DNA of 32,000 nucleotides from Candidatus Brocadiaceae baterium WH-1 (GCA_030583665.1 CP129469.1:1509043-1541042), one strand, 5' to 3'; shown: positions 10,621 to 23,356, counted from the stretch's first letter. Notes: generated by a model from the sequence alone, not told the origin. Made by a program: numbers and translations.

Positions 10621-11094
10621 ATGCCGCAAGATATATTTATTGATGTAAGCACACTGGATTTTAATAATCCGATAAAGGATATAAATGCAATTCGTACTGT
10701 CATACCACACCGGTATGAGATGGAGCAGTTATGCGGGATATTGATGTTTGATATTGATCAAAGGATTATTGTAGGATATAAAGATGTCACAGATAAGGAA
10801 TTCTGGGTAAGAGGGCACATTCCCGGACGTCCTCTGATGCCGGGGGTAATGATGCTGGAAGCAGCAGCACAATTGTGTACGTATTATTATAAACAGACCA
10901 CGAAGGATGACCGGTTCTTGGGTTTTGGTGGCATTGATGACGTTAAATTCCGGGGGAAGGTTGTGCCTGGCGATAAACTGATCCTGATTGCCAAAAATAA
11001 GGAATTGCGTTCACGGAGGGCTGTTTTTGATACACAGGGGGTGGTGAACGGTAAGCTGGTGTTTGAAGGAATTATTATCGGAATGGTGGTATAA
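10621..11094 (+). CDS. FabZ/FabA-like 3-hydroxyacyl-ACP dehydratase (hotdog fold), orphan paralogue
   Basis: 157 aa. IPHRYEM, the catalytic-His motif GHIPGRPLMPGVMMLEAAAQ (compare GHFPxxPxMPGVLxxEAxAQ), and C-terminal hotdog strands. Confidence 0.8.
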   Translation: MPQDIFIDVSTLDFNNPIKDINAIRTVIPHRYEMEQLCGILMFDIDQRIIVGYKDVTDKEFWVRGHIPGRPLMPGVMMLEAAAQLCTYYYKQTTKDDRFLGFGGIDDVKFRGKVVPGDKLILIAKNKELRSRRAVFDTQGVVNGKLVFEGIIIGMVV

Positions 11095-13603: not shown

Positions 13604-15232
13604 TTATAGATGTTTATTCACTCTCTTTATAAGGGATATATTTCCGGAATAATCTACAGGGCAATCGATAACGGCAGGGCATTGTTGTGTGAAGGCGTCT
13701 TGTAAGACAGCCTTTAGCTCATGAGCTGAAGACACACGATAACCTTTTGCACCAAAACTTTCGGCATATTTAACAAAATCCGGGTTGGTAAAATCGACAA
13801 ATGCGGAGCGTCCAACGGTATTCAGTTGTTTTGATTTGATAACACCATAACCGCCGTCATTAATAATTAATGTCACAAAGGAAACACCGAGCCGCACAGC
13901 CGTTTCTATTTCCTGTGAATTCATAAGAAAGCCACCGTCTCCGGTTATAGCAAGAACCTTACGTTCCGGATAGACTAGTTTTGCAGCGATAGCACCTGGC
14001 AATGCAATGCCCATAGATGCAAAACCATTGGATATAATACATGTATTCGGTCTGTATACTGGATAGACACGTGAAACCCATAATTTGTGTGCCCCTACAT
14101 CACTAAGAAGAATATCATCAGGACACAATACTTGGCGTATTTCGCATAATATCTTTTGAGGTTTCAGCGGAAATGAGCAGTTGGCATGCATAATCTCATG
14201 TTCTTTCATTACGGAATTTCGTAAAAGACAAACAATATTTTCCGGATCCTTTAACCTGATCAAATTGGATAAATGATTCAGCGTTTCTGAGATTTTGCCG
14301 ATTACCTCCAGATCTGCATTGTAAAATGCGTCTACCTCTCCGGGAGTTGTATCGATGTGCAGGATTTTTTTGTTTTTTTGCGGGTTCCAATGTTGAGGAT
14401 GATGTTCTACGAGATCATAACCGATCGCTATAATCAAATCTGACTGATCAAATCCGCACGAGATATAATCGGTATCCTGCAAGCCAATTGCATGCAAAGA
14501 AAGAGGGGAGTCTTCAGGAATTGATCCTTTCCCCATAAAGGTTGTGGCTACAGGAATATGCAATTTATTTGCAAAATTGGTCAATGCCGCTGCCGCATGT
14601 GCCCTTAATACTCCATTTCCTGCTAGGATAACCGGATAGCGGGCATCCGAAACTAACTTCGCTGCAATTTTCAATGTTTCCGGAGTAGGATGCGGAACCG
14701 GTATCTTTTCTTTCAAAGGAATTGGCTGCTCTTGTATGTCTGCCTTTGCCACATCTTCCGGAAAATCTATATGGGTTGCTCCCGGTTTTTCCATCTGGGC
14801 AAGTTTAAAAGCCTTCCGTACGACCTCCGGAATTACATCTGCTGTATGCACCAGGGTATTCCACTTTGTAATCGGTTTAAACATACCAACCGTATCCATA
14901 TACTGATGAGATTCCTTATGCATACGGTCGAGGCTTGCCTGCCCTGTGATAGCAACAAGTGGTGCCCTGTCCATGTTTGCATCAGCAACTCCGGTTACAA
15001 GATTCGTTGCTCCCGGACCTAATGTGGACAAGCAGACACCTGCTTTTCCTGTGAGCCGTCCATAAACATCTGCCATAAAAGCCGCACCCTGTTCATGGCG
15101 GGTTGTGATAAATTGTATCCTGGATCCTAAAAGGGAATCAAGGATATCAATATTTTCTTCTCCTGGAATCCCAAAGATATATTTGACTCCCTCATTTTCC
15201 AAACATTTAACAAACAGATCAGATGCTTTCAT
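13604..15232 (-). CDS. alsS: Thiamine-diphosphate-dependent acetolactate synthase-like enzyme (catabolic AlsS type, no small subunit nearby)
   Basis: 542 aa. N-terminal VKYIFGIPGEENIDILD, HEQGAAFMADVYGRLTGKAGVC, and the TPP-binding GDGGFLMNSQEIETAVR motif. Confidence 0.75.
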   Translation of the reverse strand: MKASDLFVKCLENEGVKYIFGIPGEENIDILDSLLGSRIQFITTRHEQGAAFMADVYGRLTGKAGVCLSTLGPGATNLVTGVADANMDRAPLVAITGQASLDRMHKESHQYMDTVGMFKPITKWNTLVHTADVIPEVVRKAFKLAQMEKPGATHIDFPEDVAKADIQEQPIPLKEKIPVPHPTPETLKIAAKLVSDARYPVILAGNGVLRAHAAAALTNFANKLHIPVATTFMGKGSIPEDSPLSLHAIGLQDTDYISCGFDQSDLIIAIGYDLVEHHPQHWNPQKNKKILHIDTTPGEVDAFYNADLEVIGKISETLNHLSNLIRLKDPENIVCLLRNSVMKEHEIMHANCSFPLKPQKILCEIRQVLCPDDILLSDVGAHKLWVSRVYPVYRPNTCIISNGFASMGIALPGAIAAKLVYPERKVLAITGDGGFLMNSQEIETAVRLGVSFVTLIINDGGYGVIKSKQLNTVGRSAFVDFTNPDFVKYAESFGAKGYRVSSAHELKAVLQDAFTQQCPAVIDCPVDYSGNISLIKRVNKHL

Positions 15233-16744: not shown

Positions 16745-16873
16745 TTATGCTTCCTTCTTCCAGGTGAATAATATGAGAAAGAGAAGGGCAAGGGTAATAA
16801 TCATAATCGTTTTCGGGCTTATATCCGGTATTATTGAATTTTCCATAGCAAATGACAATAATTTGCCAATCAT
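16745..16873 (-). CDS. Small (42 aa) single-TM protein, unannotated in the ORF track
   Basis: MIGKLLSFAMENSIIPDISPKTIMIITLALLFLILFTWKKEA*. Strong SD (AAGGAGGTAGGAG) upstream of the ATG at 16873. Its TAA abuts the lpdA TTG start. Confidence 0.4.
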   Translation of the reverse strand: MIGKLLSFAMENSIIPDISPKTIMIITLALLFLILFTWKKEA

Positions 16874-16910: not shown

Positions 16911-16955
16911 GGTTTCAGATTGCGAATTGCGGATTACCATTCGCAATCTGAAATC
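16911..16955 (-). terminator. Long perfect hairpin 28 nt after the radical SAM stop; probable 3' boundary of the lipid operon
   Basis: TTTCAGATTGCGAAT (16913-16927) and ATTCGCAATCTGAAA (16939-16953) form a 15-bp perfect stem, extendable to 17, with an 11-nt loop. The downstream minus-strand sequence is A/T-rich but has no clean U-run. Confidence 0.45.
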
Positions 16956-16982: not shown

Positions 16983-18443
16983 TTACGTTGAAAAACTTCC
17001 CACGAGTGGTTTTTCGATGGTTACAGAGTTTGATTTGTACCAATCTTTGTAATAATCACCAGAATCATATAATTCTTTTAAATTCTGCAACACCTGTTCG
17101 AACACCTGTTTCCAATCAGAGCCAACCCTGAATGCAAACATGGAATTCCTTGGATTCTTTGTCGTTGCGATAGAATTCTTAAATCGTGACCTTAAATTAT
17201 TTCCGGCATAAATGTGATCATAAACATACTGCATGCCTTCAATAAAATCCTCAAGCGTCATATCAACAAATCTATGGACAACATGCGCAGTATCGTAGTA
17301 TTGCCAGTCAGCCGGATAGTTTTTTCTGAAAATCCTCTTTTCTGAATCCAGCCTTGCATAAAGCTGTGTCTTAGGGAAAGGACAATTAATGCCAAAGGTC
17401 AAAATGTCAATATTGTTTTCCAGCACAAAATCAGTCATTCTTTTAAAAGAATCTTTATCATCACCATCCGCTCCAAACACTACCGATCCCCAGACGACTA
17501 ATCCGGCATTGTGGATCTTTTGTATGCATTCATAGTAACTATCGGTGCCTAATTTAAGATTTACCTTTTTATTCATTTTCTCCAATACCGCTTCATTGGT
17601 CGACTCTATACCAATAAGCATGCCAAAGTTACCACTTTTGGCCATATAATCAAGGGTCTCCGGATCTTGAGAAATATTGAGGGCGGTAAACCCTAACCAA
17701 TCTTTATGTATGCCACGTTCCACCATGCCTTTAAAAAGATTTCGTGCCCTTTCGTTTGATTTTTTGCCATGTCCGTAAAAATTATCCTCTGCAAGCATTA
17801 ATCCTTTATAGTCCGTTGCCTCCATTTCTTCGATCACATCTTCGTAAGGCCTTTCCCTGAATTTTCTTCCCTGGAATGTAGGTACACTGCAAAAATCGCA
17901 ATAATTAGGGCACCCTTTCGTGGTTATAATAGAAGAAAATTTATAATTGTATTTTCTTTTCATAAGCTCTCTGTCAGGATATACCCGTTTCAGCAGACTC
18001 AGCGGAGGTAAACCTCCCTGGTATACCTTTTTTAATTTTCCTTCTTCAAAATCCTTTATAACCTGCGGCCATAGTTCTTCTGCTTCCCCTATAAAGACAG
18101 CATCAGCATATTGTGCTGCTTCTTCAGGCATAACAGAGGCATGTATCCCACCCATAATTACCGTCATACCTCTTTTCCTGCAAGCTTCTGCAATCATATA
18201 AGCCCTTGGAGATTGATAAGTTACTGCGGTAATACATACAAGGTCTACGGGTTTGAAGGTAAGTTCACCGTGATCATCTATCGCCAGTTCAATATTCTCG
18301 TCAATTACATCAAATTCCCAGTCACCTGGCGTAAGAGCAGCTATATAGGCAAGGTTTAAAGGCATTTGTACAATTACGGTAATGCTTTCCTCGCCGCACC
18401 TGCCTGGTGTATGTGGATTAATCAACATCATTTTTTTCGTCAT
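16983..18443 (-). CDS. B12-binding-domain radical SAM enzyme (class B)
   Basis: CxxxCxxC cluster motif TKGCPNYCDFCSVP. N-terminal Rossmann-like cobalamin-binding domain (VDLVCITAVTYQSPRAYMIAEACRKRGMTVIMGGIHAS). I moved the start to the ATG at 18443 (MTKKMMLINP): a GGAGG SD lies 9 nt upstream and ATGA overlaps the upstream stop. The ORF-track TTG at 18458 is less likely. Confidence 0.88.
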   Translation of the reverse strand: MTKKMMLINPHTPGRCGEESITVIVQMPLNLAYIAALTPGDWEFDVIDENIELAIDDHGELTFKPVDLVCITAVTYQSPRAYMIAEACRKRGMTVIMGGIHASVMPEEAAQYADAVFIGEAEELWPQVIKDFEEGKLKKVYQGGLPPLSLLKRVYPDRELMKRKYNYKFSSIITTKGCPNYCDFCSVPTFQGRKFRERPYEDVIEEMEATDYKGLMLAEDNFYGHGKKSNERARNLFKGMVERGIHKDWLGFTALNISQDPETLDYMAKSGNFGMLIGIESTNEAVLEKMNKKVNLKLGTDSYYECIQKIHNAGLVVWGSVVFGADGDDKDSFKRMTDFVLENNIDILTFGINCPFPKTQLYARLDSEKRIFRKNYPADWQYYDTAHVVHRFVDMTLEDFIEGMQYVYDHIYAGNNLRSRFKNSIATTKNPRNSMFAFRVGSDWKQVFEQVLQNLKELYDSGDYYKDWYKSNSVTIEKPLVGSFST

Positions 18444-19903
18444 AATATTAGCCTCCAATTCTTCATAATTAAATTAGCAGCACTCCAGCCTGAAGAGACC
18501 ACAGCAGCAATTCCAGGACCTGGCCTTGTCCAATGCCCAGCTAAATATAAATTCTCAATTGTTGTCTCATGCGGCGGCCTGTTATTCCACATTTGATTTA
18601 CTGTAACCTCCCAACCATAAGCAGCACCATTCGTATTTGATGTGTAACGCTCCAGGGTCTTTGGGGTAGCGGCTTCTTTTACTTCAATATACTCTTTCAG
18701 ACGGGGAACATATTTTTCTAATTGATTGATGGTATGGTCAGTCATGTGTTCTTTGAAAGCATGCCAGTTGGTGATGCCATGGTAAACGTCTTCGTTTACA
18801 GAAACAACTACAGAAACAATCTGTTTACCGGGAGGCGCAAGTTCAGGACATATCATCGTTGGAACGGAGATGTACATCCACTCTCCATCTGAAAATCCCC
18901 AATCAGAGGTTTTATGATAAAACCCTCTCTTTAATCTGCAAATATCTGCATCTCCTTTTAAGCCCAAATATAAAAGAAAAAAAGAACAACTACATTTCAT
19001 CGTCTGAATCTTTTGAAGAAACAATAGGTCTCCCTTGGCATCCAACAGTTCCAGAAAAGTTCTTCGTACGTCAATTGCTGAAACTACTAAATCAGACGAT
19101 ATCTCTTTACCATTTTTGAGGATAACGCCTTTCACCGCATTATTTTTTAATGGGATTTTTACCGCCTCGGATGATAACATAACGTGTCCATTAAAATCAA
19201 TAAATTTCTTAAAAATTGCATTGGCAAATGCTTGTGTGCCACCTGCCGGAAAATAGGCGCCGTCCTTGAGATAATTAACCATCATTTGGCACATAGCAAT
19301 GGCAGAGGCATTAGCAGGGGGGAGGCCTATATAACCCCATTGCCCGGAAAGTACTGTTTTGAGTTCTTCGTTGCTGAAAAAAGCATCAAGCATTTCACCA
19401 TAGGTTTGATTTTTATAGATATTGATAATTTGACTGTTTTCACTATTAAACGTGGCACGGTAAAGTCTTACAAAATCGTGAAAAAATTTCTTCATGGCAT
19501 GTTTTTCTGCCGGATAACGATCCTGTAAGCGGGCGATGTATTCGTCAAGATTAGCGGGGATCTCAATACTGAAACCAGGATAGATAAGGTTGTCCATCGG
19601 GTCAAGCAGATGGAAATCCATTTCAATCCCAAGCAGCTTAAAACAGCGGCCAACAATACTCCATTTTCCGCATCCCCCGATATGGTGAACCGCTGCATCA
19701 AAATAGAAACCTTTTCTTTTAAATGAAGTGCAGTAACCTCCGGGAATAGAATGTTGTTCAACAATAAGCACTCTTTTGCCACTTTGGGCAAGTAATGCAC
19801 CACAAACGAGGCCTGCTATACCTGCGCCAATTACAATTACATCATAAGAGGGATACAACAAATCATTCTTTGTTGATTGAATGAGCCTGTGGGAATGAAC
19901 CAT
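18440..19903 (-). CDS. Phytoene-desaturase (CrtI/CrtD)-family FAD-dependent oxidoreductase
   Basis: 487 aa. Dinucleotide fold YDVIVIGAGIAGLVCGALLAQSGKRVLIVEQHSIPGG. C-terminal LYLAGHWTRPGPGIAAVVSSG is typical of the CrtI family. Starts 3 nt after the KS-like stop. Confidence 0.82.
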   Translation of the reverse strand: MVHSHRLIQSTKNDLLYPSYDVIVIGAGIAGLVCGALLAQSGKRVLIVEQHSIPGGYCTSFKRKGFYFDAAVHHIGGCGKWSIVGRCFKLLGIEMDFHLLDPMDNLIYPGFSIEIPANLDEYIARLQDRYPAEKHAMKKFFHDFVRLYRATFNSENSQIINIYKNQTYGEMLDAFFSNEELKTVLSGQWGYIGLPPANASAIAMCQMMVNYLKDGAYFPAGGTQAFANAIFKKFIDFNGHVMLSSEAVKIPLKNNAVKGVILKNGKEISSDLVVSAIDVRRTFLELLDAKGDLLFLQKIQTMKCSCSFFLLYLGLKGDADICRLKRGFYHKTSDWGFSDGEWMYISVPTMICPELAPPGKQIVSVVVSVNEDVYHGITNWHAFKEHMTDHTINQLEKYVPRLKEYIEVKEAATPKTLERYTSNTNGAAYGWEVTVNQMWNNRPPHETTIENLYLAGHWTRPGPGIAAVVSSGWSAANLIMKNWRLIL

Positions 19904-19906
19904 GTG

Positions 19907-21148
19907 TTACTGTTTATATTTGGAGATAATCAAGGAAGAGTTATTACCTAATCTGGTGAAGGAATTTATCAACACATTTTTGACAGGTAAGGAAGTTTTT
20001 TCCGTTACAAAAGGCAAATCACATTTTTCATCATGCTCCTTATAGTTGATTATAGGTGGAACTGTATGTGTGTTGAGAGACATAACTGCTGCTATGGTTT
20101 GTAATGCGCCTGATGCATCAAGACATTCTCCTGTTGCAGACTTAATGGCAGTTACAGGAATTAGCTTTGCACGCATACCAAAAACCTCTTTAATAACCAT
20201 GGTTTCCATAGCATCGCCATATACACCGGAATACGCATTGGCAGAGATATACGAAATATCATGCAATGTCAGACCAGCATCTTCAATGGCTTCCAAGATC
20301 GACCTTTTGTTACCACCTATCTGATAGTCCTTTCTTATTGCCATTTCAGGATCAAAGGCAGTTCCGTAACCTTTTACTTCAGCATAGATATGTGCATTTC
20401 TCTTGAGTGCATCGTCCAGGGTTTCAAGAATAACCAACGCCGAAGCCTCACCTATAATTAGCCCATTGCGTCTTTTGTCAAAAGGGGCGCAAATTTCCAG
20501 TGTTCCATCTCTGCTTCCAGCCAGTATTTTAGCGTTATGTGAACCCCAGAAAATATCATGGGTCAATCCATGCACTCCACCTGCTACCACTGCCTTTACA
20601 CGTCCCATACGAAGGAAATCAGAAGCATAAATAATAGCATCGATACTGCTTGTGACACCATTTGATATGGTGGTATTAAGCCCGGTTGCCTTACAAAAAA
20701 TAGATGCACGGCTCGCCGGTGCATTTAATACGGTATTGGGAAAATCCATAGGGTTAACATAATTAGGTCCTTCACGAAGTGACTGGAAATCAAATGAACT
20801 GATGCTGTCTATGCTGCCATAAGTAGAACCGACAACTATACCTAATTCGTCTCCGCTATATATCGTATTGTCCAGATTGGCATCTTTCATAGCAAGGATT
20901 GTAGCGGATGATACGAGAAGGGAGGTTCTGTCGATATGCCGGATCCCTTTTGATCCAAGATAAACTTTAGCATCAAAATCTGAGATTTCCCCAGCCTGTT
21001 TGCAACGAAATTTACTCACATCAAATAAGGTAACAGGCTTTATACCTAAGACACCATCAGTTAAATTCTTCCAATAACTATCCTTGCCTGTTCCAATAGG
21101 CGAGATAACGGAAACACCCGTAATTACAATCCTTTTTCTTTCCATCAT
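19907..21148 (-). CDS. Beta-ketoacyl synthase homologue lacking the Cys-His-His catalytic triad (chain-length-factor-like / KS-beta-like)
   Basis: Full-length thiolase-fold KS that aligns with the adjacent FabF. TACAAG becomes NGVTSS (no Cys), YISAHGTGT becomes YISANAYSG (His to Asn), and IKSMIGHT becomes IKSATGEC (His to Glu). I prefer the start at ATGATG 21148 (MMERKRIVITGV, GAGG SD) over the ORF-track 21199, which has no SD. Confidence 0.8.
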   Translation of the reverse strand: MMERKRIVITGVSVISPIGTGKDSYWKNLTDGVLGIKPVTLFDVSKFRCKQAGEISDFDAKVYLGSKGIRHIDRTSLLVSSATILAMKDANLDNTIYSGDELGIVVGSTYGSIDSISSFDFQSLREGPNYVNPMDFPNTVLNAPASRASIFCKATGLNTTISNGVTSSIDAIIYASDFLRMGRVKAVVAGGVHGLTHDIFWGSHNAKILAGSRDGTLEICAPFDKRRNGLIIGEASALVILETLDDALKRNAHIYAEVKGYGTAFDPEMAIRKDYQIGGNKRSILEAIEDAGLTLHDISYISANAYSGVYGDAMETMVIKEVFGMRAKLIPVTAIKSATGECLDASGALQTIAAVMSLNTHTVPPIINYKEHDEKCDLPFVTEKTSLPVKNVLINSFTRLGNNSSLIISKYKQ

Positions 21149-21225: not shown

Positions 21226-22446
21226 TTACTCCGTAAATTTCTTAACGACCAGACAGCTATTATTTCCACCAAACGCATGAGCGTTATTGAGTGCAACAAC
21301 CACTCCTTGTCTTCTCATAACATTGGGTACATAATCCAGGTCACATTCCGGATCGGGCGTTTCGTAATTTATGGTAGGAGGAATAATTGCATTCTGGATA
21401 GCCAAAGCACAAGTAATAGCTTCAATAGCACTTGCGGCTCCCATTGTATGGCCAATCATGGATTTTATTGAGCTGATTGCCAGATGTGCAGGTTTTTCTC
21501 CAAACACCTTTTTGATAGAGATCGTCTCTGCTTTATCATTGGCAGGCGTTCCTGTACCATGAGCACTGATATACTGAACATCCTCAGGCTTTAGATTTGC
21601 GCTCTTAAGGGCCTTTTTCATTGCCGAAACCACACCTTCGCCGTCAGGATGGGGAATGGTAATATGATAGGCATCGCAGCTAAGGCCGTAACCAATAATC
21701 TCAGCATAGATATGTGCGTTCCTCTGTAATGCATGATCAAGTGATTCCAAAAGGAGAATTCCGGCACCTTCACCAACCATCATACCTTTTCTGTTTTTAT
21801 CAAACGGCTGACATATCTCCGGGGCAATAGCACCTAACCTTGCGAATCCTGTATATGCTACTTTCGAGAAAGGATCAGATCCCCCGGCAACCATCAGATC
21901 GACCCTTCCGAATTTAATTAAATCAAAGGCATAGCCTATCGCATAGTTCCCGGCTGCGCATGCGGTTGGAATAATTGTATTTGGTCCTTTAAATCCAAAT
22001 TCAATTGCGATGTTAGCAGGGATATTATTGCAGGGATGCATCAGAAAAAGATACGGATCAACCTTATCTTCACCCTCTTTGTGTCTGATGTAATTAACTT
22101 TTTCAAGAATCTGTATTTCTCCGGCAGTTGTCCCTACAGAAACCCCTATTCTTTCTAAATCAATTTTTTCCAGGTCAAGCTTTCCATCGTCAATGGCAAG
22201 TTTTGTAGCTGCTATTCCAAATTGTGATCCTTTACCAATTTGTTTGAGAACACCGTTCTTTCTATAATCATTGTAGTTGAAATTCTTAACCTCGCATCCT
22301 TTATGAACCTTATATTCTGAGGTATCAATGCACGTAACAATATCAACGCCGGATACGCCTGAAATGAGGGCGTTCCAGAAGGTGTCTTTCCCTGATCCTA
22401 TAGGGGTAATCATCCCTACGCCTGTTATAACAACGCGTTTATTCAT
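21226..22446 (-). CDS. fabF: Beta-ketoacyl-ACP synthase II, catalytically intact
   Basis: 406 aa. Active-site Cys in [14 protein letters not shown]. His in [15 protein letters not shown] and [16 protein letters not shown]-terminal [18 protein letters not shown]. Confidence 0.9.
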
Positions 22447-22548: not shown

Positions 22549-22998
22549 TTATATTAGTGTGCTTTTCTCCGCGATTCCAAATGTTAAAGTAGCTTTGGCT
22601 GCGGATTTTTCATCAACCTTTACTATTGCCTGTACGATAGCTCCCTTGGATACAATCTTTTCAACCGTTATTTCTATGTGAAGCCGATCGCCGGGAAAAA
22701 CGGGCTTTGTAAAGCGTGCGTTACCAATCGATGCCAGCAAGAAAACCGTATCGTTGCCGTTTTGCACGGCAAGGCTTTTCTTAAATAGGATAATGGATGC
22801 CTGGGCCATCGCTTCAATGATCAACACCCCAGGCATGATAGCAAAATCAGGAAAATGCCCGACAAAAACCGGTTCATTGCATGAAACGTTTTTTATACAA
22901 ATAATTCTTTTCCCTTCTTCATACTCCACGACTTTATCAATAAATATAAAGGGATATTTTTGCGGAAGTAGGGACCTGATTTCCTCAAAATGTATCAT
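22549..22998 (-). CDS. fabZ: 3-hydroxyacyl-ACP dehydratase FabZ
   Basis: 149 aa. LPQKYPFIFIDKV, catalytic GHFPDFAIMPGVLIIEAMAQ, hotdog fold. Confidence 0.9.
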   Translation of the reverse strand: MIHFEEIRSLLPQKYPFIFIDKVVEYEEGKRIICIKNVSCNEPVFVGHFPDFAIMPGVLIIEAMAQASIILFKKSLAVQNGNDTVFLLASIGNARFTKPVFPGDRLHIEITVEKIVSKGAIVQAIVKVDEKSAAKATLTFGIAEKSTLI

Positions 22999-23086: not shown

Positions 23087-23356
23087 TCAAGATGTTAATT
23101 TCCCGTTTTCTGCCAAAACAGATTTTGTCAGATCAATAGTAGCACTTAATGATGTAATATCAACAAGCTTTTCTTCAGGTATCTGCACCTTAAACTTCTT
23201 TTCAATAAGCGCAAGTATCTCAAGAGCTAAAAGGGAATCGATTTCAAGATCCTTAAAGAAATTAGCATCCCTTTTATTCCAGATTTCATTCTCGTCCAAC
23301 TCTGTAACCTCTGCAACAATTGCGGTTACACCTTTTTCAATCTCTTCAGCGTTCAA
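23087..23356 (-). CDS. Dedicated acyl carrier protein
   Basis: 89 aa. Phosphopantetheine site DLEIDSLLALE, preceded by NFFK. TTG start supported by a strong SD (AAGGAGG, 6-nt spacer). About 10 residues longer at the C-terminus than typical AcpP. Confidence 0.85.
   Translation of the reverse strand: MNAEEIEKGVTAIVAEVTELDENEIWNKRDANFFKDLEIDSLLALEILALIEKKFKVQIPEEKLVDITSLSATIDLTKSVLAENGKLTS

Follow-up and report, generated by a model that had tools for sequence, protein, structure and literature searches.

An overlapping flavoenzyme and B12-type radical SAM gene pair in a Brocadiaceae genome and its place in anammox Cluster I

Why does a gene for a carotenoid-desaturase-like flavoenzyme share its last nucleotides with a gene for a B12-type radical S-adenosylmethionine (SAM) enzyme, inside what looks like a fatty-acid operon? 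The question is raised by a stretch of 32,000 nucleotides from Candidatus Brocadiaceae baterium WH-1 (GCA_030583665.1, CP129469.1:1509043-1541042), here called the window. The flavoenzyme gene, a phytoene-dehydrogenase-like (PDH) member of the FAD-dependent amine-oxidase/CrtI-like flavoproteins, is located on the minus strand at 18440..19903 and encodes 487 residues with the Pfam domains PF01593 and NAD_binding_8. The radical SAM gene follows on the same strand at 16983..18443 and encodes 486 residues. A preliminary description made from the DNA alone proposed that the overlap enforces stoichiometric co-production of the two proteins, and that these would first create a conjugated diene and then rearrange or cyclise it by radical chemistry, or alternatively desaturate a chain that is then C-methylated. 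Here, we ask what the pair is, what the junction means, where else the genes occur and what the enzymes may do.

Identity with anammox Cluster I

On the basis of sequence identity and gene order, the two genes are with near certainty the orthologues of kuste3607 and kuste3608, i.e. the 3' end of the published Cluster I of anammox bacteria (amxACP, amxFabZ, amxFabF2, amxFabFmut, PDH, B12-type radical SAM; kuste3603-3608). The pairing is not new, as it has already been published as part of this cluster. It is nevertheless unusual, as the preliminary description stated, for a fatty-acid operon to combine a CrtI-like flavoenzyme with an adjacent B12-type radical SAM enzyme. The fatty-acid context is clear, with an acyl carrier protein (ACP), a FabZ and two ketosynthase (KS) homologues directly upstream on the same strand. 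The top homologues of both proteins all come from Brocadiia, the anammox Planctomycetota, and the GC content of the window is 41%.

The six genes run co-directionally on the minus strand from 23356 to 16983, in the order ACP, FabZ, KS, mutated KS, PDH and radical SAM, the last being the final gene of the cluster. The first gene, the amxACP orthologue (kuste3603), is an open reading frame (ORF) of 89 residues at 23087..23356, minus strand; its NCBIfam acyl_carrier score of 49.8 bits is below the cut-off of 70.45, while the Pfam PP-binding domain is present on the Kuenenia and Brocadia orthologues. It is followed at 22549..22998 (minus strand) by a FabZ-type 3-hydroxyacyl-ACP dehydratase, the amxFabZ orthologue (kuste3604), with 93.7 bits to PF07977 FabA and 155.9 bits to the NCBIfam model TIGR01750 fabZ. 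The KS at 21226..22446 (minus strand), orthologue of amxFabF2 (kuste3605), has both the N and C ketoacyl-synt domains and is predicted to be active, with an intact Cys-His-His triad (PTACAAG, AHGTG, IGHTMG).

The fourth gene, at 19907..21148 on the minus strand, encodes a catalytically dead KS homologue or chain-length factor (CLF), the amxFabFmut orthologue (kuste3606). Its start was taken at the ATG at 21148 after a GAGG, which gives 413 residues as in Brocadia. The triad has changed from Cys to Val, His to Asn and His to Glu, exactly as published for Kuste3606 (PMC2649909, Table 2), and when aligned to E. coli FabF the protein has V/N/K/E at the triad and Lys positions, a pattern identical in Kuenenia.

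The six genes follow each other in this order, on one strand, both in the Kuenenia stuttgartiensis chromosome (CP049055) and on a 4.0-Mb contig of the Brocadia assembly GCA_000949635.1. The N-terminus of the Kuenenia radical SAM protein, MKKMMLINPHKPGRHGEESITVIVQ..., is identical to kuste3608 as given in the supplement of PMC4790861. Compared with Brocadia and Kuenenia, the identity is 88-96% for ACP, 86-91% for KS, 86-90% for the radical SAM protein, 77-85% for CLF and FabZ, and 65-73% for PDH. Individually, the PDH is 73% identical to that of Jettenia, up to about 72% to Brocadia, 67% to Kuenenia, 60% to Scalindua and 53-60% to Scalindua-like and other deeper anammox-type loci, while the radical SAM protein reaches 89% in Brocadia, 86% in Kuenenia and 72-81% in the deeper anammox-type lineages. 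The window organism represents a different Brocadiaceae lineage from Kuenenia, and the best PDH match in the databases is only 74% identical, so that the collections searched hold no species-level representative of this lineage. Every anammox lineage sampled has Cluster I, and its conservation among them is high.

Anammox bacteria also have a paralogous sister cluster, kuste2802-2805 (ACP synthase, B12-type radical SAM, FabF and a non-canonical FabB), which shares a radical SAM protein of 53-55% identity and the combination of a KS with a dead KS. In contrast to Cluster I it has no CrtI-like gene, ACP or FabZ, its radical SAM gene precedes the KS genes, and its radical SAM proteins form a separate clade in a neighbour-joining (NJ) tree. 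After the four genes of the sister cluster (ACP synthase, radical SAM, KS, CLF) comes a two-domain Oxidored_FMN/Pyr_redox_2 flavoprotein, which may resemble 2,4-dienoyl-CoA reductase, together with an ECH-family enzyme.

There is also a likeness to systems of the type II polyketide synthase (PKS) kind whose KS/CLF pair yields polyenes or small carbocycles on an ACP, namely Iga11-Iga12 and cispentacin AmcF/AmcG/AmcE (PMC10698177). These also combine a KS and a dead KS as a heterodimer with a dedicated ACP and a FabZ-like partner. The NCBIfam matches are all sub-threshold, AmcF to the KS with 238 bits and to the CLF with 148 bits, and AmcE to FabZ with 97 bits (cut-offs 325 and 140), and unlike Cluster I, the Iga and Amc systems lack a CrtI-like or B12-type radical SAM partner.

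The junction between the two genes

The PDH stop codon TGA (18442-18440) and the radical SAM start codon ATG (18443-18441) have the letters ATGA in common, as read from the sequence at 18440..18443 on the minus strand, so that the stop-to-start distance is -4 nt. A GGAGG Shine-Dalgarno (SD) sequence for the radical SAM gene is located at 18452..18456 (minus strand), 8 nt before the ATG, within the Trp-Arg codons close to the 3' end of PDH (..N-W-R..). The gene calls, the ATGA overlap and the embedded SD given in the preliminary description are all borne out by the window sequence and Pfam. An ORF listing offers an alternative, earlier radical SAM start, a TTG at 18458. However, the orthologues all begin at the methionine of M(T/K/S)KKMMLINPH, and the start is therefore placed at 18443.

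The distances between successive genes from ACP to radical SAM are 88, 102, 77, 3 and -4 nt. Judged from this spacing, CLF, PDH and radical SAM are one tightly packed translational unit. The CLF stop and the PDH ATG are separated by 3 nt (window 19904-19909, minus strand) with no recognisable SD between them; the gap is 3 nt also in Brocadia and 5 nt in Kuenenia. As a separate observation, if any junction of the cluster depends on termination-reinitiation, this one is a more likely candidate than the ATGA junction.

To place the overlap in context, the PDH-to-radical-SAM distance was measured in 48 related loci containing both genes, the window not counted. Five of the 48 values were hand-corrected from junction sequences or gene calls. 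Since many of the loci are near-duplicates of one species from different metagenomes, the 48 are not independent lineages. The distance is -4 nt in three loci (L093, L100, L133), +1 or +2 nt in nine, +4 nt in nine, +7 or +8 nt in another nine, +11 to +13 nt in 17, and +92 nt in a single locus. It is thus at most 13 nt in 47 of the 48 loci, across lineages whose GC content ranges from 37% to 72%. The -4 overlap is seen again in two distant high-GC loci, as GTGA in L155 and as ATGA in L160. An SD, either GGAGG or GGAG, is always found at or inside the 3' end of PDH in the compared loci. In the window and in the Brocadia and Kuenenia loci the motif AATTGGAGG precedes the radical SAM start, and in the Scalindua-type and high-GC loci the SD is GGAGG or GGAG. 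Kuenenia has the same embedded SD but a 4-nt spacer in place of the ATGA. The tight juxtaposition and the SD are conserved among the orthologues; the ATGA overlap itself is not.

The overlap may well have no special meaning. It would then be ordinary compaction of an operon, and the two proteins would be made at different levels and act in separate steps without a fixed 1:1 complex. We give this explanation an even chance. The 4-nt ATGA overlap is among the commonest junctions of co-directional bacterial genes and is therefore unremarkable alone, the non-random part being the conserved adjacency. The -4 overlap occurs in just three of the 48 loci, plus the window, L155 and L160, while the others have spacers of 1-13 nt and in one case 92 nt. 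With its own strong GGAGG at 8-nt spacing, the radical SAM gene can, as far as the sequence tells, also initiate independently of PDH. The levels are also unequal. In the S7 table of the Kuenenia study, whose values are described as native expression levels from metatranscriptome data, kuste3607 has 28.0 and kuste3608 has 64.7, and in proteomics of E. coli expressing the genes kuste3607 makes up 0.22% and kuste3608 0.052% of the spectra (PMC4790861). Against mere compaction stand the short distance kept in nearly all loci over a wide GC range, the independent reappearance of the overlap in distant lineages (window, L155, L160), and the packing of CLF, PDH and radical SAM without room for promoters.

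The proposal that ATGA coupling enforces stoichiometric co-production is unsupported, because most orthologues have a spacer of 1-13 nt and their own strong SD, and it is also at odds with the unequal S7 values. An enforced 1:1 production of the two proteins is thus not supported by the sequences, although some coupling is plausible. The ATGA overlap is best described as operon compaction with possible coupling, and not as a demonstrated stoichiometric device.

Distribution and proposed function

According to the literature, Cluster I is "encountered exclusively" in ladderane producers (PMC10139942) or "unique" to them (bioRxiv 10.64898/2026.05.19.726425). We found the complete order ACP-FabZ-KS-CLF-PDH-radical SAM also on contigs with a GC content of 0.55-0.72 labelled Acidobacteria, Myxococcota and Planctomycetota. 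This distribution rests on metagenome contigs and exact-protein look-ups, and the taxon labels come from the binning of metagenome-assembled genomes (MAGs). The GC content of the cluster equals that of its flanks, which argues that the contigs are no chimeras with anammox DNA. A search of the literature gave no account of Cluster I in bacteria other than anammox; what has been described from other phyla is only the loose antiSMASH category "ladderane" (PMC9902471).

The non-anammox clusters are of two kinds. In L086-L088 (L086:4476-12399, GC 0.60), where NCBI labels the same protein "Acidobacteria bacterium 13_1_40CM_2_60_7", the six genes are followed by FabG and FabH. Among the JGI metagenome contigs L124, L126 and L128 (GC 0.55-0.58), the six genes are present on L124 and L128, and the short L126 carries PDH and radical SAM only. 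In four further loci, Cluster I is fused to a second B12-type radical SAM, KS, CLF-like and FabG set that matches kuste2802-2805. These are L155:2993-13371 (Myxococcota MAG GCA_964649065.1, GC 0.69), L160:4338-14838 (Planctomycetota MAG GCA_008501825.1, GC 0.58), which has the same arrangement and ATGA at the PDH-radical SAM junction, and L158:3101-19437 and L159:3852-19117 (GC 0.66 and 0.72), which have in addition FGE-sulfatase-like, ferredoxin, ECH, further KS and FabH genes. L158 also carries cyclase-like and MIase genes. The identity of the non-anammox proteins to those of the window is 49-56% for ACP, 37-48% for FabZ, 50-58% for KS, 31-39% for CLF, 38-45% for PDH and 57-61% for radical SAM, and the second KS of these clusters again has no catalytic Cys.

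In the radical SAM tree, a quick NJ tree that is only indicative, the anammox Cluster I proteins form one clade with L158/L159 as its sister, the Cluster-I-type proteins of Acidobacteria, Myxococcota and Planctomycetota come next, and the kuste2803-type proteins form a separate clade. A scan of genome contigs with very degenerate patterns from a 13-sequence radical SAM alignment gave four close relatives among the 80 matches listed; the remaining matches listed are generic B12-type radical SAM proteins of 28-38% identity with no PDH or KS context. By the terms of the preliminary description, its reading would be refuted if the pair generally lay next to carotenoid or hopanoid genes instead of fab-type genes. 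We examined this and found no such refutation: the relatives with at least 38% PDH and at least 53% radical SAM identity all adjoin KS, CLF, ACP and FabZ genes, never carotenoid or hopanoid genes.

Three loci show other arrangements. L123:3127-9461, on a 95 kb contig of GC 0.50, has a KS, a CLF, a basal kuste2803-like radical SAM and, after about 0.9 kb, a second radical SAM 63% identical to that of the window; no CrtI-like gene, ACP or FabZ was detected there, which makes it a variant architecture without the flavoenzyme. L161:3080-4516, from a Brocadiales MAG, contains an orphan radical SAM paralogue of 60% identity. KS, ACP and PDH genes are absent from its vicinity, and COX1/FixO (cbb3-type oxidase-like) genes follow about 4 kb downstream. 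The protein falls in a separate NJ clade with Hypogeohydataceae proteins. Finally, L023:7900-13814, from a Thermodesulfobacteriota MAG, was considered as an independent pair of PDH and B12-type radical SAM (31% and 35% identity). Here, an amine-oxidase-family flavoprotein is found 0.6 kb upstream of the radical SAM gene. The candidate was rejected as an unrelated coincidence, because according to Pfam the flavoprotein is part of a polyamine gene set (arginine decarboxylase, agmatinase, saccharopine-dehydrogenase-like), and an MMPL transporter comes after the radical SAM gene.

What does the pair do? Our overall picture, towards which we lean slightly, is that PDH and radical SAM are tailoring enzymes of anammox Cluster I, most plausibly in the synthesis of ladderane lipids, with the ladderane link itself roughly even. 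What is observed here is the orthology, the gene order and context, the intact cofactor motifs and the conserved tight juxtaposition. The two proteins can be regarded as a functional unit since the pair is kept next to KS, CLF, ACP and FabZ across phyla, nearly always within the short distance described above and with a conserved SD. According to the mechanism that we propose, the KS/CLF heterodimer, a FabG acting in trans and amxFabZ would build short (about C4-C8) enoyl- or dienoyl-thioesters on amxACP. The FAD enzyme would then alter the saturation or the double-bond geometry of the tethered chain. In the last step, the radical SAM enzyme would use a 5'-deoxyadenosyl radical, possibly together with cobalamin, for hydrogen abstraction and C-C bond formation. 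In anammox bacteria, this would most plausibly serve to form the cyclobutanes or to couple the ladderane part with the linear part. Two observations speak for unsaturated intermediates, namely the Oxidored_FMN/Pyr_redox_2 flavoprotein and the ECH enzyme after the sister cluster, and the ECH and ferredoxin genes found with the fused clusters.

This picture has a history. Rattray et al. (2009) proposed Cluster I as the ladderane-lipid cluster, in which phytoene-dehydrogenase-like enzymes desaturate the chain and radical SAM enzymes cyclise it (PMC2649909), and Table 2 of Javidpour et al. (2016) lists kuste3603-3608 as ACP, FabZ, FabF, non-canonical FabF, phytoene desaturase and SAM radical enzyme (PMC4790861). 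The cluster has since been studied by the Barends group, and a review appeared in 2026. Dietl et al. (2023) found amxFabZ to favour chains of no more than C8 and to require that its substrate be bound to amxACP (PMC10139942), and in a preprint Granatino et al. (2026) report that the two KS homologues combine into a KS/chain-length-factor heterodimer with a preference for C6-C8 (bioRxiv 10.64898/2026.05.19.726425). Cluster I is highly expressed, and the consensus in the field is that it is central to ladderane synthesis (PMC10139942; bioRxiv 10.64898/2026.05.19.726425; PMC13459092). The idea of a conjugated diene followed by radical cyclisation, to which the preliminary description had come independently, re-derives the 2009 (type-a) hypothesis, which is still unproven. 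Several findings weaken it. Anammox bacteria have never yielded polyunsaturated intermediates, and isotope labelling does not fit a polyene cascade (PMC10139942). Both amxFabZ and the KS/CLF heterodimer prefer C6-C8 chains (PMC10139942; bioRxiv 10.64898/2026.05.19.726425), kuste3607 has no CrtI activity, and the fatty acids of E. coli expressing the cluster do not change, as described below (PMC4790861).

Several observations weigh against a role in ladderane synthesis. Anaerobic expression of kuste3603-3608 in E. coli gave detectable amounts of all six proteins and left the fatty acids unchanged (PMC4790861), and none of the Cluster I proteins has been tied to ladderanes by experiment (PMC10139942; bioRxiv 10.64898/2026.05.19.726425). 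The six-gene order on the Acidobacteria-, Myxococcota- and Planctomycetota-labelled contigs removes the argument that Cluster I is exclusive to ladderane producers. We know of no ladderanes from the groups of Acidobacteria, Myxococcota or non-anammox Planctomycetota that carry the cluster. In addition, conservation within the cluster is lowest for PDH (65-73% against 86-90% for the radical SAM protein), and most of the characterised relatives of the radical SAM protein, by profile and by fold, are methyltransferases (HpnR, PhpK, MgmA, TsrM, TokK, CysS), although HpnJ (the second-best profile), BchE and OxsB are not. The Pfam "B12-binding" label also does not establish that the enzyme uses cobalamin, since AprD4, which has the same Rossmann domain, reportedly does not need it.

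The fused loci suggest a wider reading, namely that the pair is part of an ancient, phylum-crossing lipid or polyketide pathway of ten genes (ACP, FabZ, KS, CLF, PDH, radical SAM, radical SAM, KS, CLF-like, FabG), which in anammox bacteria has been split into Cluster I and kuste2802-2805. To us, this is as easy to believe as to doubt. The fusion of Cluster I with the sister cluster in non-anammox bacteria suggests that both anammox clusters act in one pathway. If the reading is true, Cluster I is not unique to ladderane producers, contrary to repeated statements in the literature, and either some Myxococcota, Acidobacteriota and non-anammox Planctomycetota make ladderane-like strained-ring lipids, or the shared product differs and the rings are installed elsewhere. 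The high-GC, possibly aerobic carriers would then be the first genetically tractable route to the function. The route of ladderane synthesis has been an open problem since the discovery of these lipids in 2002, and the pair is the leading candidate for the ring-forming chemistry. Knockouts or heterologous expression might become possible with the non-anammox carriers, whereas no genetic system exists for anammox bacteria. While the reading first given to the pair re-derives the 2009 hypothesis, the cluster fused with its sister cluster outside anammox is the most useful new point.

The remaining alternatives, which partly overlap each other and the ladderane picture, concern the chemistry of the two enzymes. 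The PDH matches PF01593 Amino_oxidase with 89 bits over residues 29-479, as well as NAD_binding_8, and has the FAD-binding GxGxxG at residues 25-30 in a VIGAGIAGL...VEQ motif. Its best match in the PDB is CrtI of Pantoea ananatis (4dgk, E-value 1.9e-28), aligned over residues 23-481, i.e. the full length including the FAD Rossmann fold, and it also matches gamma-carotene desaturase (4rep). Against the NCBIfam model TIGR02734 crtI_fam it scores 189.5 bits, below the cut-off of 238.1. The earlier assignment to the CrtI family thus holds at the level of fold and Pfam but not at that of the curated family. Unlike CrtI, it lies in an ACP/KS context without carotenoid genes nearby, and its orthologue kuste3607 failed to substitute for CrtI in an E. 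coli complementation assay, where no lycopene was made (PMC4790861).

That failure is one reason to ask whether the flavoenzyme, rather than being a desaturase, isomerises (cis/trans, like CrtISO) or reduces (as a saturase) double bonds already set by the FabZ-type dehydratase. Carotenoid isomerase is the second-best curated match (160.7 bits, NCBIfam), the orthologues are annotated as prolycopene isomerase by JGI, and cycles of KS, ketoreductase and dehydratase yield double bonds without any desaturase, as in polyene-forming type II PKS. The top curated and structural matches are still desaturases, however, and we regard an isomerase or saturase as possible but the less probable case. All the PDH scores are far below the equivalog cut-offs, so neither desaturase nor isomerase activity can be assigned from the sequence.

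The radical SAM protein matches PF02310 B12-binding (40.8 bits, cut-off 32.1), PF04055 Radical_SAM (55.7 bits) and DUF4070. The CxxxCxxC motif CPNYCDFC (C178/C182/C185) is invariant in 45 homologues. In the N-terminal domain, the DxHxxG cobalamin motif was sought and is absent, with only DDHGEL there. Solved B12-type radical SAM enzymes are generally reported to lack DxHxxG too, which makes its absence uninformative, and for cobalamin use the class offers no sequence motif that is reliable. The protein reaches no curated NCBIfam cut-off. Its top match is TIGR04072 rSAM_ladder_B12, followed by HpnJ, HpnR, the PhpK family, MCR glutamine methylase and BchE with 85-65 bits. TIGR04072 ("lipid biosynthesis B12-binding/radical SAM protein") was rejected as its family, with 90.5 bits against a cut-off of 360; judged by this score, the model evidently describes another radical SAM lineage.

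An AlphaFold model built from a 45-sequence alignment is confident, with a pLDDT of 92. In a Foldseek comparison with the PDB, the best match is the radical SAM 1,2-diol dehydratase AprD4 (6FD2, TMq 0.66), followed by MgmA, TsrM, CysS, TokK and OxsB with 0.59-0.63, these five being aligned over both domains. The predicted model confirms an architecture of the B12-type radical SAM class, and its fold does not separate methylases from ring-forming enzymes. AprD4 has the same three-domain layout but is only 17-18% identical, its substrate is an aminoglycoside and it is said to be cobalamin-free. The cobalamin radical SAM enzymes that we compared (MgmA 9CCB, TsrM 6WTE, TokK 7KDX/7KDY, CysS 9N1B, OxsB 5UL4, BchE, HpnJ and the archaeal GDGT ring synthases) share the N-terminal B12-type Rossmann domain, the CxxxCxxC radical SAM barrel and a C-terminal helical domain. 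They differ in sequence (12-19% identity), and in the window protein the substrate is presumably an ACP-bound acyl chain and cobalamin binding is only predicted. That enzymes of this class can carry out ring chemistry is known from OxsB, BchE and the GDGT ring synthases (PMC13598231).

It is also conceivable, but in our view unlikely, that the pair tailors a lipid other than ladderanes. The radical SAM enzyme would then be a class B C-methyltransferase or another C-C/C-H modifier that forms no cyclobutane, and the flavoenzyme would set the saturation before or after it. The product would be a branched or modified short- to medium-length acyl chain, made by a pathway common to non-anammox bacteria. 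After the sub-threshold "ladder" model, most of the top profiles are indeed methylases (HpnR, the PhpK family, MgmA-type), the second-best HpnJ excepted. The closest solved sequences or folds include MgmA, TsrM, TokK and CysS, and the whole cluster is present on the high-GC contigs of other phyla. To our knowledge, anammox bacteria also make mid-chain methyl-branched fatty acids. However, no curated cut-off is reached, and membership among the methyltransferases is not established. Matches to B12-type radical SAM enzymes that do not methylate (OxsB, as well as BchE and HpnJ by profile) are about as good. The universality and high conservation of the cluster in anammox bacteria also count against this explanation, as does its high expression there (PMC4790861, S7 table), and a dedicated set of ACP, KS, CLF and FabZ would be costly if all it served were a simple methyl branch. 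Involvement in lipoate or octanoyl metabolism, considered from the C8 preference and a dihydrolipoyl-dehydrogenase (Lpd) homologue downstream, was rejected because the radical SAM domain structure is unrelated to LipA and no Lpd gene is found downstream of the cluster in Scalindua-type and non-anammox loci.

Neighbouring genes in the window

A perfect stem-loop of 15 bp, with arms TTTCAGATTGCGAAT...ATTCGCAATCTGAAA, is located at 16913..16953 on the minus strand and begins 30 nt past the radical SAM stop. A 90-nt segment containing it folds at -25.6 kcal/mol in ViennaRNA. The hairpin at 16913-16953 is not followed by a T-run and was not called by a terminator scan. It is probably the 3' end or a stabiliser of the cluster transcript.

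Past the hairpin come, in order, a 42-residue ORF, the Lpd homologue, an acetolactate-synthase-like thiamine-pyrophosphate (TPP) enzyme, a glycogen-phosphorylase-like protein and a HAD hydrolase. The small ORF (16745-16873, minus strand), MIGKLLSFAMENSIIPDISPKTIMIITLALLFLILFTWKKEA, is preceded by a strong SD, AAGGAGG, and is predicted to contain a membrane helix, and its stop abuts the start of the Lpd homologue. It is 70-80% conserved at the same position in the Brocadia and Kuenenia loci, where it is annotated as a gene of 42 residues.

The acetolactate-synthase-like gene (13604-15232, minus strand), between the Lpd and phosphorylase homologues, is present in the window and in the Brocadiaceae loci L089, L094, L096, L125, L127, L139 and L144. 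In contrast, it is missing downstream of the cluster in Kuenenia and many Brocadia loci (absent in L081, L090-L093, L098, L130, L133 and Kuenenia) in a neighbourhood that is otherwise syntenic, i.e. a presence/absence polymorphism. On the plus strand, opposite to the cluster, a second dehydratase of the FabA/FabZ fold with an ApeI-like Pfam match is found at 10621-11094. This gene is 78-82% identical in the Brocadia-type loci, where it closes the extended neighbourhood, with the HAD gene on one side and rplM/rpsI on the other.

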